Positions 26,166 to 58,900 of a DNA stretch of 64,000 nt are shown one piece after another. Location: the NCBI RefSeq assembly GCF_036365525.1, contig NC_090399.1, forward strand, positions 67,078,862 to 67,142,861, read 5' to 3'. A program made the position numbers and the translations under genes. The stretch's first letter is position 1; each line of letters starts with the position of its first letter. Source of the DNA: Heterodontus francisci. Taxonomy: Eukaryota. The notes under the pieces were generated by a model, which did no database searches, was not told where the DNA came from, and worked only from the letters and a program-made list of their open reading frames with translations.

Positions 26166-27113
26166 TCCCTTGACGATCTAAAGAGGTAGCAAAACTCCTC
26201 CGAGAACACATCACACGTCAACTAACTCGGCACGAGCAGAGTTAAGTCAAAACCCCCTCACCTGTAAGTTGCAGGGGAAGGGGTGGTGGGGGGGGGGGGG
26301 GGGGGGGTTCCTCGTACAGCTGAACCCATGTGATTATGACAGGGTGTTAACTGGACCTGTGTGCTCCAAAATGGCAGACCATGTGGCAAATCATTGCCGT
26401 GAACATCTGCCCAATTCTGCACACTTATATTGAACACACATCCGTCAGAACGCGCCATGCAGAGCTTCTGTAGCACTGGCACCTGCAGTGTTACCGAAAC
26501 CAATTTCATGGGAATTTTATCTGCACCGTTACGACGCTGGATCTTATTGTTACACAGGGGATGATACAAGCTGAAATAACAGGTCTAAACAAACCATCTA
26601 CAGCAACAATCATCACACATTGTTCACACTCCCTTCACAAAGTGAACCTGTTCATATCTTCTACTTGACCACATTCACTCTGAGATAGATCAGCCAGTTC
26701 GTCCCAGTCAGTGCAGATCCTTTTCCTTCACTGAAACTGCTTGTACAACCTCCTGTCTCAAACTGACCCAGTTTACAAACCTATTGTGATGTCTCATCTC
26801 ACTGTGAGGGTCAGTGTGAGGGTCAGGCTTGTCCTGTGATCACAGGCTTTGAGCTGTCCAGTTAAAGGGGCCTCAGCTTGGGCTGCTTGGCTTTGAATCG
26901 AACCTTGTTTTTTTTTTCCTTTATTTTTGATTCCTAATCAGAGAGCAGCCAACCCCATTTTTTTTTCTTTTTTGTTTTCCAAGGTGGCTTTTATACCCCA
27001 GGCCCCTTTTATATTTTTCATGTCAAGGGGGCCTTTATTCCTCAGGCCCCCTTTATATACATAATTAAATTTTTTAAATAACTTTATTAAAAACAGATAA
27101 ATAAACAGAAAAC

Positions 27114-30100
27114 TCAAATTAAAATGCCATTCTCGGCGTCGACAATGCACTCCAGTCCCTGCGGTGCCCACCGGTCGCGGAAGGCCTCAACCGTACCGGC
27201 GGACACCGCATGCTCGTTCTCCAGGGACACCCGGGCGCGAACGGAACCGCGGAAGAGGGGCAGGCAATCGGGGAGGGCGGACCCCCCTGATGGCCCGCAA
27301 CCTGGACCTGTTAATTGCCACCTTGGCCTGGCCCAGAAGCAGACCGACGAGCAGATCCTCCTCCCATCCCATGCACTCCCTCACCGGGTGCCCAAAGATC
27401 AGGAGCGTGGGACTGAAGTACAGCCAGAACTTGAGGAGCAGCCCCTTCAAATACTCAAAGAGGGGCTGCAACCTCGCACACTCCGTATAAACGTGGAACA
27501 CAGACTCGTCCAGGCCGCAGAAAGTACAGGTGGCCTGGGAGTCCATGAAAAGTCTATTGCACGGGACTGCCCTGTGCAACACCCTCCACCCCAGGTCCCC
27601 AAAGTAAAGGGGGAGGACTCCCGCGTAGAGAGACCTCCATCGGGGTTTCCCCTCGCCGCCAGATGGTAACGCGGTCCGCCAGGGCATGTCTGGCCGGCTG
27701 ACGAGGGCCAGGAAGTGGAGAGTGTGTAGTAGCAGCCCGTACAGGAAACCCCTCCGCACCGATTGGAATGGCATGGAGGGCATTTCCGAAAGGCGGCTCG
27801 GGTTGTGCGGCACCGGCTCCCGAGGAGGGTTTCGGGGCCTGGGTTCGATGAGCAGTGAGGGGCCACCCGCAGTGAGGGGCGTCCCGGGGACTTCGGCTAC
27901 TCCTCCGCCCGCCGGTCCGACCCGGAGTCGGCCGCCCGGACAGCCGAGGCGCTCTCCTCCGCCGGCGGGGGAGCGCCCTGACTGGAGGCGACCATGTTCC
28001 AGACTCGGAAAAGATCCCGGTAAAAGACAGGCAACTCCCTCAGAGAGGCGCGGCTAATGGACTCCGCCGGGAGCTGCGTGTCGTCTTGAAGGCAGTGACA
28101 CTGGCGGAAAAAATACGTCTCCAGCGCACACCATCTAGGAGGACGCTCGACGTACAGGTATCTCTGCAGGGTCCGAAGGCGGAGAGTCGTAGCCGGGGTG
28201 AGGACGCACACCAGCGACTGGCCGCCCTCCTCAATCGGGAGACTCAGGACCGCGGCTGAGACCCAGTGTTTCCTCTTGCCCCAGAAGAAATTGACAAGCT
28301 TCTTCTGGATCTTGGTGGCAAATACAGGGAGCGGGGCCAAAGTGACCAACCGGTACCACAACATGGAGGCCACCAGTTGGTTTATGACCAGCGCTCGGCC
28401 CCTGTAGGAAAGCACTTGGAGCAGTCCTGTCCAGCGCCCCAGCCGAGTGGTGACTTTTGCCTCCAACTCCTGCCAGGCTTCCTCAGCGGGGCTAAGGTGG
28501 ACTCCCAGATAGAGGAGGTGCATGGTGCTCCACTCAAAAGGTGTCATCTCCTCCGGCAGGGAGTCCACCCGCCACTGACCCACCAGGAGTCCGGAACATT
28601 TTTCCCAATTGATCTTCGCGGAGAAAAGGTCTGCTGGCAGTCGCGCATCCTCCGCAAGTCAACGGGATCTGTGACCGCGAGGAGCACGTCGTCGGCGTAA
28701 GCCGAGAGGACGACCCGCATGGCCAGCTCGCGCAGAGCCAATCCCGTCAACCTCCTGCGAAGCAGGCACAGGAAGGCCTCCACGCAGATGGTATACAATT
28801 GGCCGGACATGGGGCATCCCTGACGCACTCCTCTCCCAAAGCGAAGGGGCACCGTCAAGGCGTTAACCTTGATTGGACACTCTGCGGCGGCGTATAAAAG
28901 TCGGACCCGGGCCACTAAATGCGGCCCGAGTCCGAAAGCGCGCAGAGTCCCGAAAAGGTATTCGTGATCCAACCTGTCGAACGCCGTCTCCTGATCGAGG
29001 GAGAGAAAGGCGACCGACTGACCAGTCCTCTGGGAAAGATGGATCAGGTCCCGGACCAGGTGGATGTTGTCCTGGATGGCCAGGACCGTGTAAGACTGGT
29101 CAGGGTGGATCATGTGGGCCAGCACGGAGCCCAGGCGGGTAGACATAGCCCGGGCAAAGATCTTATAATCTGTGCTGAGGAGGGAGACCGGACGCCAGTT
29201 TTTAAGCAGGTGGAGATCGCCCCTCTTCAGCAGCAGGACGAAGACCGCCCTGCGCCACGAGAGGGGCATCTCCCCGGTCGCCAGGCTTTCCCCCAGGACC
29301 TGTGCGTAATCTTCCCCCAGGACGTCCCAGAACGCCCTGAGGAACTCCACGGTCAACCCATCCAGCCCTGGGGATTTGCCCCTCGAGAGCTGGTGGAGGG
29401 CGCCAGTCAGCTCCGCCAACGTGAGCGGAGCCTCCAATCCTTCGGCGCCCTCCGGGCTGACCAGCGGCAGGTCCTCCCACAAAACTCTGCGCGCATCCTC
29501 GCTGGACGGATTCGGAGAGAACAATGCACTGTAATAAGTACGGATCAGGAGGCCCATTCCCTTGGATCTGTGATGGAGGATCCGTCGTCGGCCAGCAGCT
29601 CGATGAGCTGCTTACGGACCCCCCGCCATTTTTCCAGCGTGTAGAAGAAGGGTGAGGCGCGGTCCAAATTTTCCAGGATCTGGATCCGCGACCTCACGTA
29701 CGCGCCTCGGGACCCTATGAGCTGCAGGTCCCTCAGCGCGCCCTTCTTCTCTTTGTACACCTGCCACAGGGCCGGGTCCACGACGGCATGACCGAGGCGG
29801 GACTCCAAGTCGAGCACCTCCCTCTCAAGGCGCCCGATCGCGGCCTCCCGCCTCTTGGTCGACCCCTTCGCGTACTCCTGACAGAAGACGCGGATGTGAG
29901 TCTTGCCCACATCCCACCATAGCCTCAAGGAGGGGAAGCCCCCCTGCTTCCTACTCCAGTCGGCCCAGAATCGACGGAACGAGTCCCGAAATCCTTCGTC
30001 CTCCAGCAGCCGGTTGTTAAAGTGCCAGTACACGGACCCCGCCCGCGTGCAGAGCGGAGTGGACCCCGCCCGCGTGCGGAGCGGAGTAAACTCCGCCCAC

Positions 30101-30788
30101 ATCAGGTGGTGGTCCGAGCACGGCACCAGCCGCATGGAGGCCGCCGAGATACGGGAGACGTACGCTTGCGAAAAGTAGAGGCAGTCGATTCAGGACCCTC
30201 CTCCTCCAGACCTCCATGTGAAGGCGCTGGAGTTGAGATGGAGATTCCGCCAGATGTCCACCAAGTTGAGGGAGCAGATCAGTTTACTCAACTTCTCCAC
30301 CGATGTCTGGCCCCGCTGGGGACCGGAGCGATCCCCCACCTCGAGGGTGTTTTTAAAATCCCCCCCCCGAGGATAATGCACTCGCCGCTATCGATGGAGC
30401 TCAAGAGAGCGGACACTTCTTCAAAGAAGCGCGCTTGCAACGCGCCAGGCCTGGGCGCGTACACGTTCACAAAGTGGAGCGGCATGCTACCCAGGCGAAC
30501 GGCGAGGTGGAGCAAGCGGCTCGGCACTAGCTCCTTGACCCCCAAGATCTCCGGCTGAAAAGTCGGGGCCAACAAGATAGCCACCCCAGTAGAAATAGGG
30601 GTGAGGTGACTCATGTAGACCCCACCCTGCCACTCCAGGAGCCAGGTAGCTTCGTCTCCCGGAACGGTGTGGGTTTCCTGCAGAAAGCTCACCGCGTATC
30701 TCCCTTCCCTGAGGACTGAGAGATTGTGAAATCTGCGGTGAGACCCCCTGCTGCCGTTGATGTTGAGGCTGGCTATGGTTATCTTCAT
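27114..30788 (-). pseudogene. Tx1 ORF2 (APE endonuclease-reverse transcriptase), frameshifted
   Basis: MKITIASLNINGSRG..FLQETH, SDHH, WHFNNRLL, KSPGLDGLTVEF, WRPVSLLSTDYKI, GVRQGCPMS, YADD, CTFCGLDESVFHVYTEC, spread over several frames. Confidence 0.92.
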
Positions 30789-30820
30789 GTCAAAGGTACT
30801 TAAAACCCGTCACCAACACC

Positions 30821-32858
30821 TCACTGTGAGGAGGGATTGGAAGTGCACCTGGCCTTCCACTCCCCCAGCAACCCATTGAGGAACACATTAAAACGGCGCC
30901 TCTCAACCAGTTTCACGTCCGTGCCCTTGCCCGCTTTCTTGAGGGCGGCACGGACGGACTGAATGATTAGCGCCAGACATGAGCAACGGCTGAGGGCCAG
31001 CTGAACTTTATTGCGGCAACTCCTGCATGCCGCGTGGAAATCCCGGAGTTCTGCCGTGGGGATGAGAGGAGACTCGGTGGGAGGAACGAGGGACTCCACC
31101 ACCTCACTGGCGATGGAATCAAGGTCATCCTCCGTGCCCCACACCGAATCCCCATCCTCCTCCGGAGGTCATCACGGCCAGCGGCCGACCCACCCACCAC
31201 ACACTGTGGGACGGAAGTCCCGGCCGCGCCAATTGGTCCCGCCTCCGTCACGATCCCACCCCCAGGATCGATGGCGGAGGAGTCCTTTCTGGGTTCTACT
31301 GTGAAACTGGTGTCTGTGGGCGGCAGCGGTTCAGGACCCCCCTCCACCTCCGTCCCCAGGCCAATGAGCGGTCCAGGGGAGACAGAAGTTCACGACTCCG
31401 GAAATCCAGCCGGAGCCGAGACCGGAGGCGGAGACAGCATCCACAGGCCCAGCAGATGGGGCAGCATTTTCAGCTATAACCAGGTCGGGTGTCTCCTGGT
31501 TGTCAGTGGTTTCTGGCTGGGAGGGTCGACCCTTTGGGGACTCGTCCTCCCCTCCACTCAGGGCACCCGACCCAATGGCAAAATGGGAGGCTTCTCCAGA
31601 AGCATCCCCAGACTCCCCCACCACAATTAGGGCTTTACTTGCTCCCACAGGAGGGGCTGCATGTAGAGGAGCCTCCCCCTCCCCTCCATCCTGAGGAATA
31701 GGGAGCTCCTGCCCAGACTTTGCAGCCTTGATGGTGGTGGTGGCAGGGAGAACCTGGGGACCTGAAATAGGAGACAGCTCCCCTCCAACAGATGGGCCCT
31801 GCACCTCAGGGCCCTGTGTTACCTCTGTGGAGCGGTGCCTTCTCCTCTTTTTCCCGCTAGGGCGCAGAGGCTCAGAGACCTCCATGCCATCAGAGGCCTC
31901 CGCCTCCGTCTCCGTACCCTCCTTTTTTTTAGTTACTCTGGGCCTGAGACCAGCCCTGGGACAGGTGGAATCTCATTGGAGCAGGCCTTGGGCTGAACCC
32001 AGGCTCGGGTTGTGTCATGGCGTCCAGGGGACGAGCCTCTCGGTGTTTACTTTTCCTCCGCGCCTTCCTTCCACTTGGACGGGCACTGCCCTCCCCGCTG
32101 GAGGCTGTGAAAACCACAGCCTCTGGAACCGACTGAGTGATGTATGTTGGATGTGAGGGGGGAGTGGGAGGAGGTGCAGTGGCGCCACTCTGGGCCGCCG
32201 AGGTGGAACTGGCGGCCGGGAGGTTGGGGCAGTTCTTACGAACATGCCTCACCCCCTTGCAGACGTGGCACCGCGCACCGTCCGAGGTCCAAAGGACGCG
32301 GTAGGCCGTCCCCTGGAACTCCACACTGAAGTGGCCCTCCAAGACCTCCTCCCGCACCAGCTGCATAAATACCTGGCGGCGGAAGGAGTAGACATGTCGG
32401 AGGCTGTGCTCCCGAAGACCGAGCGGGACTGGGGTGATCCCTGACCTCACCTCCCCCAGATGGTGCAGGTGGGGGAGGAGAAGCTCACTGGGAATGAAGG
32501 GAAGGATGTTTGATAACATTATCCGCTGTGCAGTGGCCCCCAGAGAGTCCACCGGCAGGAAAGTCCCACCCACAGTGAGCCCTTTACTCAGGGCCAGGGA
32601 CACGGCCCACTCGGTCTTCAGGAAGAACACAGCCTTCACACAGTACATTTTTGAGGCTGCCACAATGGCCGAGGGGCCGACAACCTCGGCCATCGCCTTT
32701 ACACAGGCCTCTATAGACATATTGGGGTGGGGATAGCTCTTTACCTCATGACTCGAAGTAATTAATTTGAAAGGTGACGGGGTCACATGGGTGGCCACAG
32801 AGGCTACAGCCGCATAGTTATGAGAGGGCCCCGCCACCGGTGATGATGGGCTTGCCAT
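30821..32858 (-). pseudogene. Tx1 ORF1 (gag-like nucleic-acid-binding protein), frameshifted
   Basis: MASPSS..VGPSAIVAASKM..AVFFL..SNILPFI..SFRRQVFM; CX2CX4HX4C knuckle CHVCKGVRHVRKNC; ends 32 bp before the ORF2 ATG. Confidence 0.88.
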
Positions 32859-33530
32859 GGCTCAAGAGCCAAACCCACCCCAAAATTGTGGGCTTGCACA
32901 CTGAACAACAAAAGATTCACAGAAGATATTGAATATGTATTAAAAAAAAACAAACAACAGGTTAGGGGAGAGGCTGAGGGAATAGAGGAGAGGTAACGAC
33001 AGATGGTAAGGGATGACTTGCTTTTTGGAGGTGGTGCTCACAGCACACTTGAAACAGTCTTTGCACTTGGTCTTCCAGTCTTCTGGTTGGGGGAGGCGTC
33101 TTCACCTGGGTCAGCTGAAGCTGCCCAGACACTATCTATCACCTTCCAACTGTTTAGCCAGGCAGCTTCAGCTGACCCAGGCTGGGCAATTGGGGTGGGG
33201 AGGGAGCTTCCCTGTGTGCTTGTTGCAGCAGCACAGATTCCTGCTGAATTGGCAGCCCCACCCCTTGATGTTCTGGGCACTTGTTCCTCCCCCAGCAGTC
33301 CAAAGTAAATTACTGGTGTTCAGCAAACACCTCCAGACAAAGCCTTGTTTCCAACAAAAAGTATCTCTTTCTTCTCTTTAATGGTGATTGTTGTTGAAGC
33401 TTTCCCTCTGCTTGGTTGTAACTGCTATCCCTTGCTCAGTGCAGCTCCTTCTCTCCACCTCCGCCACCAGCAGTCTCAGCTGAGGCTCGTTGCTGCAATC
33501 AGCAGTCAACACTTGAATTAGCCAGCAGCC

Positions 33531-33606
33531 AACCCATGATGCGTATGCCCGAGGAGTGTTTGATGGGGACAGTTTAGAGGGAGCTTTATTCTGTATCTAA
33601 CCCCCG
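33531..33606. repeat. Single (partly degenerate) monomer of the ~70-bp minisatellite separating the two Tx1 copies
   Basis: GGAGTGTTTGATGGGGACAGTTTAGAGGGAGCTTTATTCTGTATCTAACCCCCG matches the units at 40235-40520. Confidence 0.88.
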
Positions 33607-33847
33607 TTTTTTTTTCAAAGGTTTTTGCAGTTTCTCCTCAGCTCTCCCTCTCCAGCAGCACCTCCAGCAACTGACTGCAGCACTGTCAGCTGCACCTTGT
33701 TGCTGCACTCAACATTCAGAGAGCAGCGAACCCCATTTTTAAAAATATTTTTCACGTCGACGGGGCCTTTATTCATCAGGCCCCCTTTATATACATATTC
33801 ACAGTTTTAAAATAACTTTATTAAAACCAGATAAATAAACAAAAAAC

Positions 33848-36800
33848 TCAAATTAAAATGCCATTCTCGGCGGCGACGATGCACTCCAGTCCCTGTGGTG
33901 CCCACCGGTCGCGGAAGGCCTCAAACGTACCGGCGGACACCGCATGCTCCTTCTCCAGGGACACCCGGGCGCGAACGTAACCACGGAAGAGGGGCAGGCA
34001 ATCGGGGAGGACGGACCCCCCGACGGCCCGCAACCTGGACCTGTGAATTGCCACCTTGGCCAGGCCCAGGAGCAGACCGACGAGGAGATCCTCCTCCCGG
34101 CCCAAGCCCCTCCGCACCGGGTGCCCAAAGATCAGGAGCGTGGGACTGAATTGCAGCCAGAATTTGAGGAGCAGCCCCTTCAGATACTCAAATAGGGGCT
34201 GCAACCTCGCACATTCCGTATAAATGTGAAACACGGACTCGTCCTGGCCGCAGAAAGTACAGGCAGCCTGGGAGTCCGTGAACCTACTTAAAAGCCTATT
34301 GAACGGGACTGCTCTGTGCAGCATCCTCCACCCCAGGTCCCCGATGTAAAGGGGGAAGACTCCCGCATAGGGAGACCTCCATCGGGGTTTCCCCTCGCCG
34401 CCAGATGGCAACGCGAACCACCAGGGCGTGTCCGGCCGGCTGACGAGGGCGAGGAAGTGGAGAGTGTGCAGGAGCAGCCCGTACAGGAAACCCCTCCGCT
34501 CCAATTGGAATGGCACAGAGGGCATTTCCGAGAGGCGGCTCAGGTTGTGCGGGACCGGCTCCCAAGGAGGGTTTCGGGGCCTGGGTCCGATGAGCAGTTC
34601 CGGCCGAGCGGGTGTCAGCTCGGCCGGGATCGCTCCACACTCCCGAGCCCCTTCGCCACCCGCAGTGAGGGGCGTCCCACGGGTTTCGGCCAGTCCTCCG
34701 CCTGCCGGACCGTCCCCGGAGTCGGCCGCCCGGACAGCCGAGGCGCTCTCCTCCGCCGGCGGGGGAGCGCCCTGACTGGAGGCGACCATGTTCCAGACTC
34801 TGAATAGTTCCCGGTAAAAGACAGGCAACTCCCTCAGAGAAGCGCAGCTAATGGACTCCACCGGGAGCTGCGTGTCGTCTTGAAGGCAGAGACACTGGCG
34901 GAAAAAATACGTCTCCAGCGCACACCATCTGGGAGGACGCTCGACGTACAGGTATCTCTGCAGGGTCCGAAGGCAGAGAGTCGCAGCGTGGGTGCGGACA
35001 CACACCAGCGACTGGCCGCCCTCCTCCATCGGGAGACTCAGGACCGCGGCAGAGACCCAGCGTTTCCTCTTGCCCCAGAAGAAATCGACGAGTTTCTTCT
35101 GGATCTTGGTGGCGAATACAGGGGGCGGGGCCAAAGTGACCAACCAGTACCACAGCATGGAGGCCACCAGTTGGTTTATGACCAACGCTCGGCCCCTGTA
35201 GGAAAGCACTCGGAGCAGTCCTGTCCAGCGCCCCAGCCGAGCGGTGACTTTCGCCTCCAACTCCTGCCAGTTTGCCGGCCAGGCTTCCTCAGTGGGGCTA
35301 AGGTGGACTCCCAGATAGAGGAGGTGCGTGGTGCTCCACGCAAAAGGTGTCATCTCCTCCAGCAGGGAATCCACCCGCCATTGACCCACTAGGAGTCCGG
35401 AACATTTCTCCCAATTGATCCTCGCAGAGGACGCGGCAGAAAAGGTCTGCTGGCAGTCGCGCATCCTCCGCAAGTCAACAGGATCTGTGATTGCGAGGAG
35501 CACGTCGTCGGCGTAAGCCGTGAGGACGACCCGCATGGCCGGCTCGCTCAGAGCCAATCCCGTCAACTTCCTGCGAAGCAGGCACAGGAAGGGCTCCACG
35601 CAGATGGTACACAATTGGCCGGACATGGGGCATCCCTGACGCACTCCTCTCCCAAAGCGAAGGGGCACCGTCAAGGATTCATTAACTTTGACTAGACACT
35701 CTGCGGCGGCGTATAAAAGTCGGACCCGGGCCACGAGTCCGAAAGCGCGCAGAGTCCCGAAAAGGTATTCGTGATCCACCCTGTCGAACGCATTCTCCTG
35801 ATCGAGGGAGAGAAAGGCGACCGACTGACCAGTCCTCTGGGAAAGATGGATCAGGTCCCGGACCAGGTGGATGTTGTCTTGGATGGGATGGACCGGCCCG
35901 GGACCATGTAGGACTGGTCGGGGTGGATCATGTGGGCCAGCACGGAGCCCAGGCGGGTAGACATAGCCCGGGCAAAGATCTTATAATCCGTGCTGAGGAG
36001 GGAGACCGGAAGCCAGTTTTTAATCAGGCGGAGATTGCCCCTCTTCAGCAGCAGGACGATGACCGCCAGGCTTTCCCCCAGGACCCGTGAGTAATCGTCC
36101 CCCAGGATGTCCCAGAATGCCCTGAGGAACTCCACGGTCAACCCATCCAGCCCTGGGGATTTGCCCCTCGAGAGCTGGTGGAGGGCACCAGTCAGCTCCG
36201 CCAATATGAGCGGAGCCTCCAATCCTTCGGCGCCCTCCGGGCTGACCTGCGGCAGGTCCTCCCACAAAACTCTGCGCGCATCCTCTCTGGACGGATCCAG
36301 AGAGAACGCACTGTAATAAGTACGGAACAGGAGGCCCATTCCCTCCGGATCCGTGATGGAGGATCCGTCGTCGGCCAGCAGCTCAATGAGCTGCTTACGG
36401 ACCCCCCGCCATTTTTCCAGCAAGTAGAAGAAGGGTGAGGTGCGGTCCAAATCTTCCAGGATCTGGATCCGTGACCTCACGTACGGGCCTCAGGACCCTA
36501 TGAGCTGCAGGTTCACTCAGCGCGCCCTTCTCTTTGTACACCTGCCACAGGGCCGGGTCCACGACGGCATGACCGAGGCAGGACTCCAAGTCGAGCACCA
36601 CCCTCTCTCGGCGCCCGATCTCGGCTTCCGGCCTCTTGGTCGACCCCTTTGCGTACTCCTGACAGAAGACGCGGGTGTGAGTCTTGCCCACATCCCACCA
36701 TAGCCTCAAGGAGGGGAAGCCCCCCTGCTTCCTTCTCCAGTCGGCCCAGAATCGACAGAACGAGTCCCGAAATCGCTCGTCCTCCAGAAGTTGGTTGTTA

Positions 36801-37545
36801 AAGTGCCAGTAAGCGGACCCCGCCCGCGTGCGGAGCGGAGTGAACTCCGCCCACACCAGGTGGTGGTCCGAGCACGGCACCAGCCGCATGGAGGCCGCCG
36901 AGACGTGGGAGACGTACGCCTGCGAAAAGTAGAGGCGGTCGATTCGCGACCCCCCTCCTCCAGACCTCCACGTGAAGGCGCTGGAGTCGGGATGGAGATT
37001 CCGCCAGACGTCCACCAAGTTAAGGGAGCTGATCAGTCCTCTCAACCTCTCCACCGACGCTTGGCCGCGCTGGGGACCGGAGCGATCCCCCACCTCGAGG
37101 GTGCAGTTAAAATCCCCCCCGAGGATGATGCACTCGCCGCTTTCGATGGAGCTCAAGAGAGCGGACACTTCTTCAAAGAAGCGCGCTTGCAACGGGCCGG
37201 GCCGGGCCTGGGCGCGTACACGTTCACAAAGTGGAGCGGCACGCTACCCAGGCGAACGGCGAGGTGGAGCAAGCGGCCCGGCACTAGCTCCTTGACCCCC
37301 AAGATCTCCGGCTGAAAAGTCGGGGCCAACAAGATAGCCACCGCACTAGAAATAGGGGTGAGGTGACGCATGTAGACCCCACCCTGCCACTCCAGGAGCC
37401 AGGTGGCTTCGTCTCCCGCAACGGTGTGGGTTTCCTGCAGAAAGCTCACCGCGTATCTCCCTTCCCTAAGGACTGAGAGATTGTGAAATCTGCGGTGAGA
37501 CCCCCTGCTGCCGTTGATGTTGAGGCTGGCTGTGGTTATCTTCAT
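33848..37545 (-). pseudogene. Tx1 ORF2 (APE-RT-Zn), frameshifted; C-terminal 643 aa uninterrupted
   Basis: MKITTASLNING, GGDFN, SRIDRLY, SDHH, YADD, YLGV, CTFCGQDESVFHIYTEC. Confidence 0.93.
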
Positions 37546-37577
37546 GTCAAAGGTACTTAAAACCCGTCACCAACAGC

Positions 37578-39604
37578 TCACTGTGAGGAGGGAGTGGAAG
37601 TGCACCTGGCCCTCCACTCCCCCAGCAACCCATTGAGGAACACATTAAAACGGCGCCTCTCAACCAGTTTCACGCCCGTGCGCTTGCCCGCTTTCTTCAG
37701 GGCGGCACGGATGGACTGTATGATCAGCGCCAGATTCGACCAACGACTGAGGGCCAGCTGAACTTTATTGCGGCAACCCCTGCAAGCCGCGAGGAAATCC
37801 CGGAGTTCCGCCGTGGGGATTCGGTGGGAGGCACGAGGGACTCCACCACCTCACTGGTGATGGAATCAAGGTCATCCTCCGTGCCCCACACCGAATCCCC
37901 ATCCTCCTCCGGGTCGTCACCGCCAGCGGCCGACACATCCACCACACACTGTGGGGCGGACGTCCCGGCCGCGCCAGCTGGTCCCGCCTCCGTCACGATC
38001 CCACCCCCAGGATCGATGGTGGAGCAGTCCTTTCTGGGTTCTACTGTGAAACTGGAGCCTGTGGGTGCCAGCAGTTCAGGACCCCCCCTCCACCTCCATC
38101 CCCAGGGCAATGAGTGGTCCAGGGGAGACAGAAGTTCCGACTCCGGAAATCCAGCCAGAGCCGAGACTGGTGGAGGAGGAGAGAGGAGGCCATCTCCAGC
38201 TCCACCAGCACCCACAGGCTCAGCAGATGGGGCAGCATTCTCAGTTATAACCGGGTCGGGTGTCTCCTGGTTGGTGGTGGACTCCGGCTGGGAGGGCCGA
38301 CCCTCTGGGGCCTCGCCCTCCCCTTCACTCAGGGCACCCGACCCAGTAGCAATGGCAGAATGGGCGGCGTCCCCAGGCTCCCCCACCACAAGCAAGGCCC
38401 CACTTACTCCTTCAGGAGGCGCCTCAAGTACCGGGGCCTTCCCCTCCCCTCCATCCTGAGGAATAGGGTGCTCCTGCCTGGACTTTGTAGCCTTGTTGCT
38501 GGCGGAAGGGGAAACCTGGGGACCCGAAACAGGAGACAGCTCCCATCAAACAGATGGGCCCTGCGCCTCAGGGCCCCTCGTTACCTCAGTGGAGGGGTGC
38601 CTTCTCCTCTTTTTCCCACTAGGGCGCAGAGGCTCAGAGACATCTGTGTCATCAGAGGCCTCCGCCTCCTCCTTCTTTTTAGTCACCCTGGGCCTGAGCC
38701 CAGCCCTGGGACAGGTGGATTCCGTGAGAACGGGCTTTGGGCTGAGCTCAGGCTCAGGTTGTTTCAATGTGTCCAGGGGACGCGCCTCTTGATGTTTCTT
38801 TTGCCTCCGTGTCTTCCTTCCACACGGACGGGCTCTCCCCTCCCCGCTGGAGGCTGTGAAAACCACAGCCTCCGGAACCGACTGAGCGGTGTCTGTTGGA
38901 TGTGTGGTGGGAGTGGGAGGAGGTGCTGTGGAACCACTCTGGGCCGCCGAGGTGGAGCTGGCGGCCAGGAGGTTGGGGCAGTTTTTACGAACATGCTTCA
39001 CCCCCGTGCAGACGTGGCACGCGCCCCGTCCGAGGTCCAAAAGACGCGGTAGGCCGTCCCCTGGAACTCCACATTAAATTGGCCTTCCAAGTCCTCCTCC
39101 CGCGCCAGCTGCATAAATACCTGGCGGCGTAAGGAGTAGACATGTTGGAGGCTGTGTTCCCGAAGACCCAGCCGGACTGGGGTGATCCCTAACCTCACCT
39201 CCCCCAGATGGTGTAGATGGGGGAGGAGGAGCTCACTGGGAATGAAGGGTGGGACGTTTGATAACATTATCCGCTGCGCAGTGGCCCCCAGAAGGTCCAC
39301 CGGCAGGAAGAATCCCCCCACAGTGAGCCCCTTACTCAGGGCCAGGGACACGGCCCGCTCGGTCTTTAGAAAAAACACAGCCTTCCCATACATCTTTGAG
39401 GCCGCAACAATGGCCGAGGGGCCGACAACCTCGGCCATTGCCTTCACACAGTCCTCAATGGACATGTTGGGGTGGGGATAGCTCTTCACCCCATGGCTGG
39501 ATGTTATTAATTTAAAGGGTGACGGGGCTACGTGGGCAGCCACAGAGGCTGCAGCTGCATAGGTTGTAGAGGGCCCCGCCACCTGTAATGAAGGGCTTGC
39601 CAAT
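37578..39604 (-). pseudogene. Tx1 ORF1, frameshifted, ATG lost (TTG at the homologous position)
   Basis: ASPSLQVAG..AASKMYGKAVFFL..SNVPPFIP; CHVCTGVKHVRKNC knuckle. Confidence 0.87.
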
Positions 39605-40234
39605 TGTCTAAGAGCTAACCCACCCCAAATTGTAGGCTTGAAAATAACTTTAAGATGCACAAAACAAACAAACAACAGGTTAGGGGAGAGGCTGAGGGAA
39701 TAGAGGAGAGGGAAAGACAGGCTGTCAGGGATGACTTTCTTTTCCTTTCTGGAGGTGGTACACACAGCACACTTGAAACAGTCTCTGCCAGCACACGGTC
39801 TTCCGGTCTTCTGGTTGGGGGAGGCGTCTTCACCTGGGTCAGCTGAAGCTGCCCAGGCACTATCTATCACCTTCCAACTGTTTAGCAGGGCAGCTTCAGC
39901 TGACTCAGGCTGGGCAATTGAGGTGGGGAGGGAGCTTCCCTGCAACTTTAGTGCAACTGCACAGCTCCCTGCAGAATTGTATAGCCCCCACCCCTTGTTC
40001 TTCTGGCCTCTTCCACCTCCCACAGCAGACCAAATGAAATGAGTCTGGTGCTCAACACCCACCTCGAAATACAGGCTTATTCCAAAAGTCTCTCCTCCTC
40101 TGCAGCAAATGTTGTTCAAAGTTTTTACAGCTTCTCCTCAGCTCTCCCTCTCCAGCAGCACCTCCAGCAACTGACTGCAGCACTGTCAGCTGCACCTCAT
40201 TGATGCACTTTGGAGTCCCAATTAGGAAGCAGCC

Positions 40235-40525
40235 AACCCCAGTGCTGTACCTGTCCTGGGCAGTGTTTGATGGGGGACAGTGTAGAGTTTGCTTTACTCT
40301 GTATCTAACCCCCGTGCTGTACCTGTCCTGGGGAGTGTTTGATGGGGGACAGTGTAGAGTTTGCTTTACTCTGTATCTAACCCCCGTTTTTTTTTTTTCT
40401 TTTTGTAGAGGGAGCTTTACTCTGTATCTAACCCCCGTGCTGTACCTGTCCTGGGAGTGTTTGATGGGGGACAGTGTAGAGTTTGCTTTACTCTGTATAT
40501 AACCCCAGTGCTGTATCTGTGCTGT
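40235..40525. repeat. ~70-72-bp minisatellite (about 4 units), the apparent Tx1 target
   Basis: Unit AACCCCCGTGCTGTACCTGTCCTGGGAGTGTTTGATGGGGGACAGTGTAGAG(TTTG/GGAG)CTTTACTCTGTATCT; starts at 40235, 40307, 40379, 40430, 40501. Confidence 0.93.
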
Positions 40526-40691
40526 AACATGTGGGCTGGCAGTTGTTGTGCCGAGCTGATTATCGGAATCTCTCTGCCTGTGTCGGGGTGTGGAGGAGGA
40601 GGGACAGGGACAGGGGTGGGGCAGCTGCTGGAATCTGTGGTTTAGGCAGTGCAGCAGAGCAGTGAGCTGTGAAAGGAGCTGCAGATTTGCG

Positions 40692-47912: not shown

Positions 47913-50900
47913 AACAGGGAGATTTTCAAGCAACGGAATATTGTTCAGAATTGTGTTGGAGAGACTCGAAGTATTCTGTCCTCAAATACTTCATGGTCCA
48001 AATCTGTTAATGTGATTAAAAGTGCTGAGCCCTGCAGCAGTCACACTACATATGACCAGCAGATCCCAAGCAGTGCACATTGTTCAAAAGAGAGCCTCAA
48101 CATTGAACACTGGTAAGATATTGAACCACAGGGTGGGAGTTGGTGCGAGCAAGGGGGCATTACAGTGTAGTATGATCCAATTCACCGGGAACAGGAACCA
48201 TGAGCTCCCCCTTCCCCTCTCCATCACAGCCAGGCCCAAGACTCTGCGCTTCCCTCTTCCCCAATCCGATTATCCAACTCAACACTGGCTGGCAATAGGA
48301 ACGCAGAGAACAAACACAGAAACAATGTTTACAGAGCTTTGGAGCCCTTCTCTGCCTCACTGCAGGTTCTTTCAGGACAATGATCTTGAAGATGCAGCCA
48401 CTGTGACACATCAGCAACATATTCCCAAAGCTACATGCTGGTCAGTGTCAAACCCCTACATATATACCGTTCCATTCACTAAAGAATTCAATAAACAGCC
48501 CATTCAGTCACTCTGATGGAAAGAGCTGATAAACAATTATTTCTCCACCTGCATATCATTGTGGGGGCACTGTCATTCAAAACATATCAATGAAAAATTA
48601 ACACTAAGTGTAAATAACATGAACTCCTCGATTAGAATCCAGTCAGTAACTCACTCCCGAGTATCCGTTACTCTATAAAGCCCCAAACCCCTCGATTAGA
48701 TTCTAGTCGTAACTGACTCCCGGGTATCTGTTATTCTATATATAAACCCCCTGAACCCCTCAATTAGATTCCAGTCTCTAACTCACTCCCATGTATCTGT
48801 TATTATGGATATAAAACCCCCAAACCCCTCGATTAGATTCCAGTCTGTAACCCACTCCCGGGTATCTGTTATTCTATATATAAACCACCCGAGCCCCTCG
48901 ATTAGATTCCAGTCTGTAACTCACTCCCATGTATCTGTTATTATGGATATAAAACCCCCAAACCCCTCGATTAGATTCCAGTCTGTAACTCACTCCCGGA
49001 TATCTGTTATTCTATATATAAACCACCCGAGCCCCTCGATTAGATTCCAGTCTGTAACTCACTCCCGGGAATCTGTTATTATGTATTTTAAACCCCCGAA
49101 CCTCTCTATTACTCTCCAGTCTGTAACCTACTCCCGGGTATCTGTTATTCTACATATAAACCACCCGAGACCTTCGATTAGATTCCAGTCTGTTATCCAC
49201 TCCCGGCTATCTGATATTCTATATATAAACCACCCGAACCCCTCGATGAGATTCCAGTCTGTAACTCACACCCGGGTATCTGACATTCTATATATAAACC
49301 ATCCGAGCTCCTCGATTGGATTCCAGTCTGTAACTCACTCCCGGGTATCTGATATTCTATATATAAACCACCCGAACCCCTCGATGAGATTCCAGTCTGT
49401 AACTCACTCCCGGCTATCTGATATTCTATATATAAACCATCCGAGCCCCTCGATTGGATTCCAGTCTGTAACTCACTCCCGGGTATCTGATATTCTATAT
49501 ATAAACCCCCGAAACCCCTCGATTGGATTCCAGTCTGTAACTCACACCCGGGTATCTGATATTCAATATCTAGACCACCCGAGCCCCTCAATTGGATTCC
49601 AGTCTGTAACTCACTCCCGGGTATCTGTTATTCGATATATAAACACCCCGAGCCCCTCGATTAGATTCCAGTCTGTAACTCACTCCCGGGTATCTGTTAT
49701 TCTATATATAAACCATCCGAGCCCCTCGATTGGATTCTAGTCTGTAACTCACTCCCGGGTATCTGTTATTCTATATATAAACCCCCCGAACCCTTCGATT
49801 AGATTCCAGTCTGTAACTCACTCCCGGGTATCTGTTATTCCATATATAAACCCCCTGAACCCTTCGATTAGATTCCAGTCTGTTACTCACTCCCGGGTAT
49901 CTGTTATTCCATATATAAACCCCCTGAACCCTTCGATTAGATTCCAGTCTGTTACTCACTCCCGGGTATCTGTTATTCTATATATAAACCCCCCGAACCC
50001 TTCGATTAGATTCCAGTCTGTTACTCACTCCCGGGTATCTGTTATTCCATATATAAACCCCCTGAACCCTTCGATTAGATTCCAGTCTGTAACTCACTCC
50101 TGAGAATCTGTTATTCTGGAAATAAAACCCCTGAACCCCTCGACTAGATTCCAATCTGAAATTCACTCCCGGGAATCTGTTATTATGTATATAAAACCCC
50201 CGAACACTTCGATTAGATTCCAGTCTGTAACGCAGTCCCGGGTATCTGATATTCTATATACAAACCACCCGAGCCCCTCGATTAGATTCCAGTCTGTAAC
50301 TCACTCCCGGGTATCTGATATTCTATATATAAACCACCCGAACCCCTCGATTAGATTCCAGTCAGTAACTCACTCCCGGGAATCTGTTATTATGTATTTT
50401 AAACCCCCGAACCTCTCTATTAGATTCCAGTCTGTAACCCACTCCCGGGTATCTGTTATTCTATATACAAACCACCCGAGCCCCTCGATTGGATTCCAGT
50501 CTGTAACCCACTCCCGGGTATCTGTTATTCTATCTCCAAACCACCCGAGCCCCTCGATTGGATTCCAGTCTGTAACCCACTCCCGGGTATCTGATATTCT
50601 ATATATAAACATCCTGAACCCTTCGATTAGATTCCAGTCTGTAACCCACTCCCGGGTATCTGTTATTCTATATATAAACACCCTGAACCCTTCGATTAGA
50701 TTCCAGTATGTAACCCACTCCCGGGTATCTGTTATTCTATATATAAACACCCTGAACCCTTCGATTAGATTCCAGTCTGTAACTCACTCCCGGGTATCTG
50801 TTATTCTATATACAAACCACCCGAGCCCCTCGATTGGATTCCAGTCTGTAACCCACTCCCGGGTATCTGATATTCTATATATAAACATCCTGAACCCTTC

Positions 50901-53739
50901 GATTAGATTCCAGTCTGTAACCCACTCCCGGGTATCTGTTATTCTATATATAAACACCCTGAACCCTTCGATTAGATTCCAATCTGTAACCCACTCTCGG
51001 GTATCTGATATTCTATATACAAACCACCCGAGCCCCTCGATTGGATTCCAATCTGTAACTCGCTCCCGAGAATCTGTTATTATGTATATAAAACCCCCGA
51101 ACCCTTCGATTAGATTCTAGTCTGTAACTCACTCCCGGGTATCTGTTATTATGTATATAAAACCCCCAAACCTCTCGATTAGATTGCAGACCGTAACTCA
51201 CTCCCGAGAATCTGTTATTCTATATATAAATAACCCGAACCCCTCGATTAGATTCCAGTCTGTTACCCACTCCCGGGTATCTGTTATTCCATATATAAAC
51301 CCCCTGAACCCTTCGATTAGATTCCAGTCTGTAACTCACTCCCGGGTATCTGATATTCTACAAATAAACCACCCGAGCCCCTCGATTAGATTGCAGTCTG
51401 CAACTCACTCCCGAGAATCTGTTATTATGTATATAAAACCCCCGAACCCCTCGACTAGATTCCAATCTGTAACTCGCTCCCGAGAATCTGTTTTTTGTAT
51501 ATAAAACCCCCGAACACTTCGATTAGATTCCAGTCTGTAACGCAGTCCCGGGTATCTGATATTCTATATATAAACCCCCCGAACACCTCGATTAGATTCC
51601 AGTCTGTAACTCACTCCCGGGTATCTGATATTCTACATATAAACCCCCGAAACCCTCGATGAGATTCCAGTCTGTAACTCACTCCCGGGTATCTGATATT
51701 CTATATATAAACCACCCGAGCCCCTCGATTAGATTCCAGTCTGTAACTCACTCCCGGGTATCTGATATTCTGTATTTATACCACCCGAGCCCCTCGATTA
51801 GATTCCAGTCTGTAACTCACTCCTGAGAATCTGTTATTATGGATATAAACCCCCCAAACCCCTCGATTGGATTCCAGTCTGTAACTCACTCACGGGTATC
51901 TGATATTCTGTATATAAACCCCCGAAACCCTCGATTAGATTCCAGTCTGTAACTCACTCCCGAGAAGCTGTTATTCTGTATATTAAACCCCGAACCCCTC
52001 GACGAGATTCCAATCTGTAACTCGCTCCCGAGAATCTGTTATTATGTATATAAAACCCCCGAACACTTCGATTTGATTCCAGTCTGTAACGCAGTCCCGG
52101 GTATCTGATATTCTATATACAAACCACCCGAGCCCCTCGATTGGATTCCAGTCTGTAACTCACTCCCGGGTATATGTTATTCTATATATAAACCCCCCGA
52201 ACCCTTCGATTAGATTCCAGTCTGTTACCCACTCCCGGGTATCTGTTATTCTATATATAAATAACCCAAACCCCTCGATTAGATTCCAGTCTGTTACCCA
52301 CTCCCGGGTATCTGTTATTCCATATAAAAACCCCCTGAACCCTTCGATTAGATTCCAATCTGTAACTCGCTCCCGAGAATCTGTTTTTTGTATATAAAAC
52401 CCCCGAACACTTCGATTAGATTCCAGTCTGTAACGCAGTCCCGGGTATCTGATATTCTATATATAAACCACCCGAGCCCCTCGATTAGATTCCAGTCTGT
52501 AACTCACTCCTGAGAATCTGTTATTATGGATATAAACCCCCCAAACCCCTTGATTGGATTCCAGTCTGTAACGCACTCACGGGTATCTGATATTCTGTAT
52601 ATAAACCCCCGAAACCCTCGATTAGATTCCAGTCTGTAACTCACTCCCGAGAAGCTGTTATTCTGTATATAAAACCCCGAACCCCTCGACTATTTTCCAA
52701 TCTGTAACTCGCTCCCGAGAATCTGTTATAATGTCTATAAAACCCCCGAACACCTCGATTAGATTCCAGCCTGTAACGCAGTCCCGGGTATCTGTTATTC
52801 TTTATATAAAACCCTCCCCCAACCCCGAACACCTCGATTAGATTCCAGTCTGTAACTCACTCTCGGGTATCTGATATTCTATATATAAACCACCCGAGCC
52901 CCTCAATTAGATTCCAGTCTGTAACTCACTCCCGGGTATCTATTATTCTTTATATGAACTGCCCCCCCCCACCGAACCCCTCGATTAGATTCCAGTCTGT
53001 AACTCACTCCCGGGTATCTGTTATTCTTTCTATAAACCCCCCGAACCCTTCGATTTGATTCCAGTCTGTAACTCACTCCCGGGTATCTGATATTCTATAT
53101 ATAAACCACCCGAGCCCCTCGATTAGATTCCAGTCTGTAACGCACTCCCAGGTATCTGTTATTCGATATATAAACCACCCGAGCCCATCGATTGGATTGC
53201 AGTCTGTAACGCACTCCCGGGTATCTGTTATTATGTAGATAAAACCCCCGAACCCCTCGACTCGATTCCAATCTGTAACCCGCTCCCGAGAATCTGTTAT
53301 TATGTATATAAAACCCCCAAACCTCTCGATTAGATTCCAGTCTGTAATGGACTCCTGAGTATCTGTTATTATGTATATAAAACCCCCGAACCCCTCGATT
53401 AGATTCCAGTCTGTAACTCACTCCTGGGTATCTGTTATTATGTAAAAAAAACCCCGAACACCTCGATTAGATTCTAGTCTGTAACTCACTCCTGGGTATC
53501 TGTTATTATGTATATAAAACCCCGAACCCCTCAATGAGATTCCAGGCTGTAACTCACTCCCGAGAATCTGTTATTATGTATTTTAAACCCCCGAACCTCT
53601 CTATTAGATTCCAGTCTGTAACCCACTCCCGGGTATCTGTTATTCTATATACAAACCACCCGAGCCCCTCGATTGGATTCCAGTCTGTAACCCACTCCCG
53701 GGTATCTGATATTCTATATATAAACACCCTGAACCCTTC

Positions 53740-55983
53740 ATAGAACATAGAACATAGAACATACAGCACAGAACAGGCCCTTCGGCCCACAATGTTGTGC
53801 CGATCCTTTGTCCTCTGTCAAGGACAATTTAATCTATACCCCATCATTCTCCTTTATCCATATACCTATCCAAAAGCCTTTTGAAAGTCCCTAAAGTTTC
53901 TGACTCAACAACTTCCCCGGGCAAGGCATTCCATGCCTCGACCACTCTCTGGGTAAAGAACCTTCCCCTGACATCCCCCTTATATCTCCCACCCTTCACC
54001 TTAAATTTATGACCCCTTGTAACGCTTTGCTCCACCCGGGGAAAAAGTTTCTGACTGTCTACCCTATCTATTCCCCTGATCATCTTATAAACCTCTATCA
54101 TGTCACCCCTCATCCTTCTCCGTTCTAATGAGAAGAGGCCTAGAATGTTCAGCCTTTCCTCGTAAGACTTATTCTCCATTCCAGGCAACATCCTGGTAAA
54201 TCTCCTCTGCACCCTCTCCAAGGCTTCCACATCCTTCCTAAAATGAGGCGACCAGAACTGCACACAGTACTCCAAATGAGGCCTTACCAAGGTCCTGTAC
54301 AGCTGCATCATCACCTCACGGCTCTTAAATTCAATCCCTCTGCTAATGAACGCTAACACCCCATATGCCTTCTTCACAGCCCTATCCACTTGAGTTGCAA
54401 CTTTCAATGATCTATGCACATAGACCCCAAGGTCTCTCTGCTCCTCCACATGCCCAAGAACCCTACCGTTAACCCAGTATTTTGCATTCATGTTTGTCCT
54501 TCCAAAATGGACGACCTCACACTTTTCAGGGTTAAACTCCATCTGCCACTTTTCAGCCCAGCACTGCAACCTATCCAAGTCCCTTTGCAGACGACAATAG
54601 CCCTCCTCGGTATCCACAACTCCACCAACCTTTGTATCATCTGCAAATTTACTGACCCACCCTTCGACTTCCTCATCCAAGTCGTTAATAAAAATCACAA
54701 ACAGGAGAGGACCCAGAACTGATCCCTGCGGCACGCCACTGGTAACTGGGCTCCAGGCTGAGTATTTACCATCTAAGACCACTCTCTGCCTTCTATCAGT
54801 TAGCCAATTCTTAATCCAACTGGCCACATTCCCCACTATCCCATGCCTCCTGACTTTCTCCATAAGTCTACCATGGGGGACCTTATCAAATGCCTTACTA
54901 AAATCCATGTACACCACATCCACTGGTTTACCCTCATCCACTTGCTTGGTCACCTGCTCAAAGAATTCAATCAGGCTTGTGAGGCAAGACCTACCCCTCA
55001 CAAAACCGTGCTGACTGTCCCGAATCAAGCAGTGTCTTTCCAGATGCTCAGAAATCCTATCCCTCAGCACCTTTTCCATCAACTTGCCTACCACCGAAGT
55101 AAGACTAACTGGCCTGTAATTCCCAGGGTTGTTCCTATTCCCTTTCTTGAACAGGGGCACAACATTTGCCACCCTCCAATCACCTGGTACCACCCCCGTC
55201 AGCAGAGAAGATGAAAAGATCATTGCCAGCGGCTCTGCAATTTCATCCCTTGCTTCCCATAACATCCTTGGATATACCCCGTCAGGCCCGGGAGACTTGT
55301 CTATCTTCAAGTTATTCAAAAACCCCAACACATCTTCCCTCCTAACGAGCACTTCCTCGAGCTTACCAGTCTGCTTCCCACCGTCCTCTTCAGTAATACA
55401 CCCCTTCTCATTCGTAAATACCGAAGAGAAGTACTCATTCAAAACCTCACTTATCTCTTCCGGCTCAACACACAGTCTCCCGCTATTGTCCTTGACCGGA
55501 CCTACGGTCCCCTTAGTCATCCTCATATTTCTGACATACGCGTAAAAGGCCTTGGGGTTTTCTTTTATCCTACCCGCCAAGCATTTTTCATGCCCTCTCT
55601 TAGCTCTCCTAATCCCTTTCTTCAGATCCTTCCTGGCCATCTTGTATCCCTCCAGAGCTATGCCTGTGCCCTTTTTCCTCAACTTTATATACGCATCCTT
55701 CTTCTTCCTAACAAGACTCTCAACCTCTCTTGTCAACCACGGTTCCCTCACATGACCATCCCTTCCCTGTCTGACAGGGACATGCTTATCAATGGCCCCT
55801 ACTATCTGCTCCTTGAAAAAGTTCCACATTTCGACCGTGCCCTTCCCTGCCAGCATATGCTCCCAACTTATGCTCCTCAGTTCCTGCCTGACAGCATCAT
55901 ATCTACCCTTCCCCCAATTGTAAACCTTGCCCTGTTGCACATACCTATCCCTCTCCATTACCACAGTGAATGCTACAGAATTA
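53740..55983 (-). mobile_element. Young CR1 LINE, 5'-truncated, ORF2 remnant open for 706 aa
   Basis: KSPGPDG, NYRPVSLTS, QHGF, YMDFSKAFD, GVPQGSVLGP, FADDTK; tail (ATAGAAC)x3; inserted at CCCTTC|GATTAG with no evident TSD. Confidence 0.96.
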
Positions 55984-58900
55984 GATTAGATTCCAGTCTG
56001 TAACCCACTCCCGGGTATCTGTTATTCTATACATAAACACCCTGAACCCTTCGATTAGATTCCAGTCTGTAACTCACTCCCGGGTATCTGATATTCTATA
56101 TACAAACCACCCGAGCCCCTCGATTGGATTCCAGTCTGTAACCCACTCCCGGGTATCTGATATTCTATATACAAACCACCCGAGCCCCTCGATTGGATTC
56201 CAATCTGTAACTCGCTCCCGAGAATCTGTTATTATGTATATAAAACCCCCGAACCCTTCGATTAGATTCTGGTCTGTAACTCACTCCCGGGTATCTGTTA
56301 TTATGTATATAAAACCCCCAAACCTCTCGATTAGATTGCAGACCGTAACTCACTCCCGAGAATCTGTTATTCTATATATAAATAACCCGAACCCCTCGAT
56401 TAGATTCCAGTCTGTTACCCACTCCCGGGTATCTGTTATTCCATATATAAACCCCCTGAACCCTTCGATTAGATTCCAGTCTGTAACTCACTCCCGGGTA
56501 TCTGATATTCTACAAATAAACCACCCGAGCCCCTCGATTAGATTGCAGTCTGCAACTCACTCCCGAGAATCTGTTATTATGTATATAAAACCCCCGAACC
56601 CCTCGACTAGATTCCAATCTGTAACTCGCTCCTGAGAATCTGTTTTTTGTATATAAAACCCCCGAACACTTCGATTAGATTCCAGTCTGCAACGCAGTCC
56701 CGGGTATCTGATATTCTATATATAAACCACCCGAGCCCCTCGATTAGATTCCAGTCTGTAACTCACACGCGAGAAGCTGTTATTCTGTATATAAAACCCC
56801 GAACCCCACGACTAGATTCCAATCTATAACTCGCTCCCGAGAATCTGTTATTATGTATATAAAACCCCCGAACACTTCGATTAGATTCCAGTCTGTAACG
56901 CAGTCCCGGGTATCTGATATTCTATATATAAACCCCCCAAACCCCTCGATTGGATTCCAGTCTGTAACTCACTCCCGGGTATCTGATATTCTGTATATAA
57001 ACCCCCCGAACACCTCGATTAGATTCCAGTCTGTAACTCACTCCCGGGTATCTGATATTCTACATATAAACCCCCGAAACCCTCGATGAGATTCCAGTCT
57101 GTAACTCACTCCCGGGTATCTGATATTCTATATATAAACCACCCGAGCCCCTCGATTAGATTCCAGTCTGTAACTCACTCCCGGGTATCTGAAATTCTAT
57201 ATTTAAACCACCCGAGCCCCTCGATTAGATTCCAGTCTGTAACTCACTCCTGAGAATCTGTTATTATGGATATAAACCCCCCAAACCCCTCGATTGGATT
57301 CCAGTCTGTAACGCAGTCCCGGGTATCTGATATTCTGTATATAAACCCCCGAAACCCTCGATTAGATTCCAGTCTGTAACTCACTCCCGAGAAGCTGCTA
57401 TTCTGTATATAAAACCCCGAACCCCTCGACTAGATTCCAATCTGTAACTCGCTCCCGAGAATCTGTTATTATGTATATAAAACCCCCGAACACTTCGATT
57501 TGATTCCAGTCTGTAACGCAGTCCCGGGTATCTGATATTCTATATACAAACCACCCGAGCCCCTCGATTGGATTCCAGTCTGTAACTCACTCCCGGGTAT
57601 CTGTTATTCTATATATAAACCCCCCGAACCCTTCGATTAGATTCCAGTCTGTTACCCGCTCCCGGGTATCTGTTATTCTATATATAAATAACCCGAACCC
57701 CTCGATTAGATTCCAGTCTGTTACCCACTCCCGGGTATCTGTTATTCCATATAAAAACCCCCTGAACCCTTCGATTTGATTCCAGTCTGTAACTCACTCC
57801 CGGGTATCTGTTATTCTATATGCAAACCACCCGAACCCTTCGATTAGATTCCAGTCTGTTATCCACTCCCGGCTATCTGATATTCTATATATAAACCACC
57901 CGAACCCCTCGATGAGATTCCAGTCTGTAACTCACACCCGGGTATCTGACATTCTATATATAAACCATCCGAGCTCCTCGATTGGATTCCAGTCTGTAAC
58001 TCACTCCCGGGTATCTGATATTCTATATATAAACCACCCGAACCCCTCGATGAGATTCCAGTCTGTAACTCACTCCCGGCTATCTGATATTCTATATATA
58101 AACCATCCGAGCCCCTCGATTGGATTCCAGTCTGTAACTCACTCCCGGGTATCTGATATTCTATATATAAACCCCCGAAACCCCTCGATTGGATTCCAGT
58201 CTGTAACTCACACCCGGGTATCTGATATTCAATATCTAGACCACCCGAGCCCCTCAATTGGATTCCAGTCTGTAACTCACTCCCGGGTATCTGTTATTCG
58301 ATATATAAACACCCCGAGCCCCTCGATTAGATTCCAGTCTGTAACTCACTCCCGGGTATCTGTTATTCTATATATAAACACCCCGAGCCCCTCGATTGAA
58401 TTCTAGTCTGTAACTCACTCCCGGGTATCTGTTATTCTATATATAAACCCCCCGAACCCTTCGATTAGATTCCAGTCTGTTACTCACTCCCGGGTATCTG
58501 TTATTCCATATATAAACCCCCTGAACCCTTCGATTAGATTCCAGTCTGTAACTCACTCCTGAGAATCTGTTATTCTGGAAATAAAACCCCTGAACCCCTC
58601 GACTAGATTCCAATCTGAAATTCACTCCCGGGAATCTGTTATTATGTATATAAAACCCCCGAACACTTCGATTAGATTCCAGTCTGTAACGCAGTCCCGG
58701 GTATCTGATATTCTATATACAAACCACCCGAGCCCCTCGATTAGATTCCAGTCTGTAACTCACTCCCGGGTATCTGATATTCTATATATAAACCACCCGA
58801 ACCCCTCGATTAGATTCCAGTCAGTAACTCACTCCCGGGAATCTGTTATTATGTATTTTAAACCCCCGAACCTCTCTATTAGATTCCAGTCTGTAACCCA

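Follow-up and report, generated by a model that had tools for sequence, protein, structure and literature searches.

Two stacked LINE copies and their appended heads

The window, i.e. the whole analysed stretch of 64,000 nt of Heterodontus francisci DNA (contig NC_090399.1), contains two full-length copies of a LINE, stacked head to tail and separated by one degenerate monomer of a ~70-bp repeat (Table 1). The two copies are ~87% alike, differ in their head (5' end) variants, and both encode fragments of an APE endonuclease and a reverse transcriptase (RT).

Table 1. Coordinates of the stacked insertions and of other repeats in the window
Feature	Position	Strand	Remark
Target monomers upstream of copy 2	40241..40510	-	
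Clipped monomer (32 nt) and A-tract	40387..40436	-	monomer counterpart of the appended head
Copy 2, full-length Tx1-clade LINE (assignment: see text)	33736..40240	-	ORFs frameshifted; own head starts at 40240
66-bp block in own head of copy 2	40132..40197	-	identical to 33632-33697
First A-tract of copy 2 (A5)	33736..33740	-	follows shortened 3' UTR
Appended short 5' head behind 3' end of copy 2, 119 nt	33616..33734	-	variant as in head of L041/L295
Second A-tract (A9)	33607..33615	-	closes appended head of copy 2
Single degenerate ~70-bp target monomer	33536..33606	-	between appended head of copy 2 and copy 1
Copy 1, full-length Tx1-clade LINE (assignment: see text)	26958..33535	-	
Appended short head behind poly(A) of copy 1, 28 nt	26929..26956	-	
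Second A-tract of copy 1, interrupted	26908..26928	-	followed by degenerate target-like site in non-repeat DNA
Second minisatellite	48621-62650		69-bp
LINE fragment	53844-55985		RT-bearing; interrupts second minisatellite
CT-rich blocks	1-23848		long, simple-repeat

Each copy is followed by an additional short head that is closed by a tail of its own. At the end of copy 2 the minus strand reads A5, T, the 119-nt head, A9 and then monomer; at the end of copy 1 it reads A-tract (26978-26958), T, the 28-nt head and the interrupted A-tract. The sequence-only reading had recognized this order at both 3' ends, and we confirm it, with the qualification that the first tract of copy 2 consists of five A's only; the 3' UTR of this copy is also ~30 nt shorter than in most relatives. 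Equally correct was the reported 66-bp identity between the appended head (33632-33697) and copy 2's own head, which is exact and cannot be extended further. In its first ~40 nt the appended head departs from the head of copy 2 and has diagnostic letters in common with that of another copy (L041/L295). The exact 66-mer was found at 6 of 29 other best-matching head loci, which marks the block as family-conserved. The presence of CTCTCTGA in both appended heads had been taken as a sign of a master element; this does not hold, as heads with CTCTCTGA occur at 17 of the 70 loci picked for a monomer-preceded head, and it is a common, ordinary head variant. Therefore neither the 66-bp block nor CTCTCTGA ties the appended piece to copy 2 or to a master element.

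On either side of the stack, the outer flanks (40490-40530 and 26890-26907) look like the two halves of one degenerate target site, a hint that the monomers between them arrived with the insertions. Both copies contain a ~63-nt near-palindrome in the 5' UTR (39840-39902 and 33112-33174), with weak miRNA-type matches, and a hairpin encloses the AATAAA of the copy 2 3' UTR (33765-33788).

A Tx1-clade family with a sharp target

Judged from its predicted protein and its target preference, the element family belongs to the Tx1 clade of LINEs. ORF2 of an intact family copy (L376) shows 50% identity to Xenopus Tx1 ORF2 at 100% coverage. Young relatives contain intact ORFs of 680 aa (ORF1) and 1245 aa (ORF2); the separate ORF1 gives a zf-CCHC match with an E value of 0.039, below the Pfam cut-off. 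In L374, L376 and their relatives both ORFs are intact and the bodies are 0.1-0.9% apart, which points to recent activity. An Rfam scan of heads and monomers for ribozymes or structured RNAs gave 8 weak matches, none at the gathering score. The processes seen here are known ones; the family itself was not found described in the open literature, and may be catalogued in Repbase or in subscription journals, which lay outside the search.

The insertion target is [C/T]GGGGTT, which is the start of the ~70-bp repeat and, nearly, of the element's own head, and copies consequently stack head to tail. A query of the 6.0-Gb genome with the 3' end of the element yielded 1057 candidates, 40 of which were scored. 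In 29 of 29 other 3' ends inspected by eye the A-tract runs into a GGG(G)TT/GGGATT-type site, and 2248 exact A-tract/monomer junctions were found, compared with none in the reversed control. Among ~26 of 40 loci covered, several 5'-truncated copies start after 11-14 nt of monomer start, i.e. an ordinary target-site duplication. Under strict patterns, 1172 heads are preceded by monomer and 242 by an A-tract.

Several further features of the family were observed. One common body is joined, at L300-L369, to four or more distinct 5' UTR types whose first ~10 nt are identical. Most monomer-preceded heads (56/70) have CT as their first bases, without the 11-14-nt duplication that is otherwise usual. 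L400, L402 and L416 carry an identical 11-nt monomer piece and A-tract before the same head type, as if this were a unit inherited on the 5' side, and at L169-L175 amplification of one unit of clipped monomer and A-tract has given a tandem array with about ten repeats of it. In the match lists, copies seem to cluster on small contigs and within ~20 Mb of the ends of large ones. The monomer target also harbours other A-tailed RNAs, among them a full-length copy of U5 snRNA (Rfam RF00020, model positions 1-117 of 117; L006, 1989-2099). Of the others, L183 is a SINE-like tail, L184, L052, L056 and L399 are mRNA-like 3' ends that contain AATAAA, and L204, L210 and L219 are short fragments lacking a signal; the ~35-nt piece at L189 (~1595-1635) has no Rfam match and looks like the head of a tRNA-type SINE.

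Appended heads are sporadic and variable

A short head is absent from 28 of 29 close relatives, and the one present sits behind a monomer fragment. In a survey of the first 100 of the 2248 exact A-tract/monomer junctions, an automatic rule assigned 35 to bare 3' ends, 46 to monomer fragments, 3 to heads and 16 to other sequences. Hand inspection of the last class revealed 4 further monomer fragments, one head and one truncation junction, giving 50 monomer fragments (7 of them from one amplified array), 4 heads, 10 others and the 35 bare 3' ends. The length of the appended heads ranges from 13 to 354 nt, and several variants are represented. Among full-length elements with a visible head of their own (L150 and L372 were left out, as no own head was recognized), the appended head was own-like in 2 of 11 (L148, L375); copying of the element's own 5' end is thus excluded for most cases (9/11).

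Inheritance in a lineage was not seen. The 8 copies labelled as short-head are dispersed over a tree of 80 bodies, with a mean distance of 0.038, compared with 0.036 overall; the labels were assigned automatically, and at least two (L416, L375_8097) are wrong. One young short-head copy has 13 nearest relatives differing at 1-8 of 900 nt, and its appended piece was carried by none of the 12 of them for which the 3' side was covered.

It had been proposed that read-through into a downstream tandem copy became fixed as an LTR-like terminal repeat and was passed down from a master element. The arrangement is indeed present in both copies of the window, the two own-like heads conform to it, and a few unrelated loci end the appended head at the same place (66-67 nt and 17-18 nt). 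Nevertheless, the rarity of heads in comparison with bare 3' ends, their inconstant length, their mostly foreign origin and the scatter of the bodies that carry them all contradict fixation and make such a repeat extremely improbable; the part of the proposal that survives is read-through, which is still the likeliest origin (see below). A fixed LTR-like repeat would have been the surprising claim, and it fails here. The accompanying idea that the appended head regenerates the GGGGTT target is accurate insofar as the head recreates the target site, but every ordinary 3' junction does likewise.

The alternative offered with that proposal, a separate head-only polyadenylated element, is right in one respect: solo heads with poly(A) do occur in monomer arrays (L133, L137, L138, L141, L060, L067), and around one of them (L138) no element match was found within 10 kb. 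These solo heads are 17-197 nt long and belong to several variants, so that the fixed length and single sequence of a SINE-like family descending from one master are not found. The short appended head is a variable, sporadic add-on, and represents neither a fixed terminal repeat nor a local accident.

Short pieces are enriched directly behind 3' ends

That the arrangement is not an accident of this locus follows from its frequency. A pattern for heads directly behind a 3' end detected 34 places, 19 of which stop at a second poly(A), while 14 continue and the remaining one is a truncated copy whose duplication derives from a head. Collapsing duplicated loci leaves 16 of 30 heads that stop. Among monomer-preceded heads (the first 70 of 1172), used as a control, 2 of 70 stop at a second poly(A) (19/34 vs 2/70, p 9e-10; 16/30 vs 2/70, p 1e-8). 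The 56% rate of short heads applies to copies with the longest 3' UTR: among heads behind any A-tract (the first 30 of 242), 4-5 were short, and directly behind a 3' end 1 of 7.

Monomers behave in the same way. Clipping and re-tailing within 66 nt affected 41/118 monomers behind a 3' end, 42/192 that follow another A-tract and 58/623 that follow monomer, in pooled loci that are not an unbiased sample; in the head-selected set the corresponding rates were 5/11, 2/25 and 6/125. Heads were clipped within 66 nt in 11 of 30 cases, the same as the monomer rate (p 0.83). The appended head is therefore one case of a general rule: the tail of the element is often followed by a short target-anchored piece and a second tail.

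These pieces do not derive from the adjoining target. The same head never directly follows an appended head (0/19), 7 of 21 monomer fragments exceed in length the monomer run that comes after them, and what follows a monomer fragment is often a head or a shorter run of monomer. The absence of a repeated head, together with the excess length of the fragments, shows that the piece is imported and is not a target-site duplication; all head-poly(A)-head cases (L127, L136, L140, L210/L317) likewise pair different variants.

Of 113 tails on clipped monomers, 49 start 7-17 nt past AGTAAA (p 1e-6 relative to a flat null; this null is crude, and the spacing is broad, 1-47 nt), and the element's own ends lie 7-17 nt past TATAAA in 126 of 137. 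Both motifs we take to be variant poly(A) signals. No recognizable signal precedes the second tail in the longer heads, including the 119-nt head of copy 2.

Origin of the appended pieces

The explanation that we prefer, and to which we would give an even chance, is 3' transduction, in which read-through carries along whatever lay downstream. Transcription would pass the short genomic A-tract of the element into the next sequence, and the transcript would end anew 7-350 nt further on, where it would be tailed. Reverse transcription would then begin at the new tail, and the whole transcript would be copied back as one unit. A donor flanked by monomer would deliver a monomer piece and a donor flanked by another copy a head piece, while solo pieces would represent the same events, curtailed on the 5' side. 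The observed order (element, poly(A), extra sequence, second poly(A), target) is that expected of transduction, and read-through with a new 3' end would account in one step for the enrichment behind 3' ends, for the equal clip rates of heads and monomers and for the independence of the piece from the local target.

Several findings count against this model and favour the separate insertion of short RNAs. No donor with the same 3' end and head variant was found: the 14 long heads that adjoin a 3' end provided no match to any of the 16 short events, in a comparison made by eye on 14 loci obtained with one strict pattern from one assembly. Searching with the variants of two young short heads recovered, apart from these two, 6 unrelated monomer-preceded heads and nothing else. 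Bodies that are nearly identical (1-8 differences in 900 nt) bear different appended pieces, so that transduction would need many donors. The head types are also skewed, one type accounting for 9/16 short events as against 4/70 monomer-preceded heads and the commonest for 0/16 as against 36/70. To these may be added the lack of a signal in the longer heads.

The main rival, though a less likely one, invokes short, prematurely ended, A-tailed 5' transcripts of the family, each retroposed in trans to the same target as a mini-insertion of its own and placed behind full elements by immediate re-use of the site or by a jump of the RT from the short to the full-length RNA. Such insertions would fit the skew and the missing donors; the solo heads, among them the isolated one at L138, agree with them, and the A-tailed U5 copy and mRNA-like fragments at the same target indicate that the machinery takes short RNAs. 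The enrichment of 19/34 over 2/70 would, however, require an extra coupling rule, and the model gives no reason why heads and monomers should be clipped at equal rates. Moreover, the base before the G-run and the downstream target base differ in ~7 of 20 cases (by eye), where a duplication should make them agree, CpG decay being a possible cause. The start of the head gives a similarly divided picture: CT is found in 2/16 short heads behind a 3' end compared with 56/70 monomer-preceded heads (p 7e-7), as separate insertion would have it, but compared with long heads in the same position (6/13) p is only 0.09. With 5/32 short and 7/30 long heads behind A-tracts beginning with CT (pooled), this feature discriminates weakly between transduction and separate insertion.

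The short head might alternatively be the stump of a once-complete downstream element, the rest of it deleted when poly(A) newly inserted at the 3' junction was joined to a cut near the 5' junction. This would require no donor, and tandem pairs with a common truncation point do exist (L065, L072, L161, L424); at L062 the appended piece repeats the copy's own 5'-truncation junction. Deletion should, however, be blind to head type, although the commonest type is missing from the short events, and it leaves the enrichment behind 3' ends unexplained. A loss of 6.5 kb would need to be as frequent as one of 70 bp, and an internal position of the element preceded the tail in 0 of 100 junctions (automatic rule). 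We therefore regard deletion as very unlikely.

Comparison with known systems

Like the Tx1-clade elements (Xenopus Tx1, Keno, Kibi, Koshi and Tx1-Mar), the family described here combines APE and RT in ORF2 with a strong target preference; it differs in that its target is both a ~70-bp repeat and its own head. Tandem insertions at one target have been reported for the Tx1-linked SINEU-3 (PMC4494074), while the available text of that paper makes no mention of clipped target pieces stacked one after another with a poly(A) at the end of each. The same source records A-tailed snRNA retrocopies, which resemble the short heads in that a short RNA with an A-tail is inserted by LINE machinery, as the U5 copy at the target exemplifies; such trans-mobilized retrocopies alone do not predict enrichment directly behind element 3' ends.

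According to PMC7265360, 3' transduction occurs in L1 and in the target-specific elements R7Ag and R1Bm, where downstream sequence and a second poly(A) likewise follow the element's own tail. The pieces found here are very short in comparison (7-350 nt) and correspond to the element's own target or to the head of a sister copy, and no donors were found for them.

The sequence-only reading had drawn a loose analogy with Drosophila HeT-A/TART. This holds for the head-to-tail arrays of non-LTR elements in one orientation, but not for the redundancy itself. HeT-A has its promoter in its own 3' UTR and TART contains perfect non-terminal repeats (PMC5537684); the redundancy in our family is sporadic, is located beyond the poly(A) and in most cases does not match the head of the copy itself. 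The Dictyostelium element TRE5-A also presents 5' UTR sequence again on its 3' side, in the form of a duplicated B-module, which is a fixed 290-bp segment inside the 3' UTR that seems dispensable (PMC3159450). The appended head differs from this fixed, internal module in being variable and in lying behind the tail.

Implications of the appended pieces

A target-specific vertebrate LINE that is able to insert before its own head produces sporadic terminal redundancy without fixing it, and such redundancy would be raw material for a possible evolution of HeT-A-like promoter sharing. A more far-reaching and rather unlikely reading is that the LINE spreads its own target repeat, through RNA with monomer on both ends, and that short heads serve as the promoter of the next copy. 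The degenerate outer flanks of the window's stack, together with the 23 of 70 monomer-preceded heads that sit exactly one monomer behind an A-tract, can be offered for the spreading of the repeat, and the short appended heads keep two ATTGG boxes. If this were true, the LINE would build its own landing pads and borrow its neighbour's promoter, and short heads would drive full-length transcription downstream. The large size of the family, its young copies with intact ORFs and its sharp target make it a tractable system for studying the formation of junctions and the LINE-borne spread of repeats.

The tandem 5'-truncated copies with a common truncation junction (L062, L065, L072, L161, L424) are an observation in their own right. 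Their bodies are 92-99% alike, and they may have originated by tandem duplication or by capture of a new cDNA by the old junction. The second piece at L062 consists of the junction, 41 nt and poly(A) only, and the same junction recurs on another contig with no element upstream.
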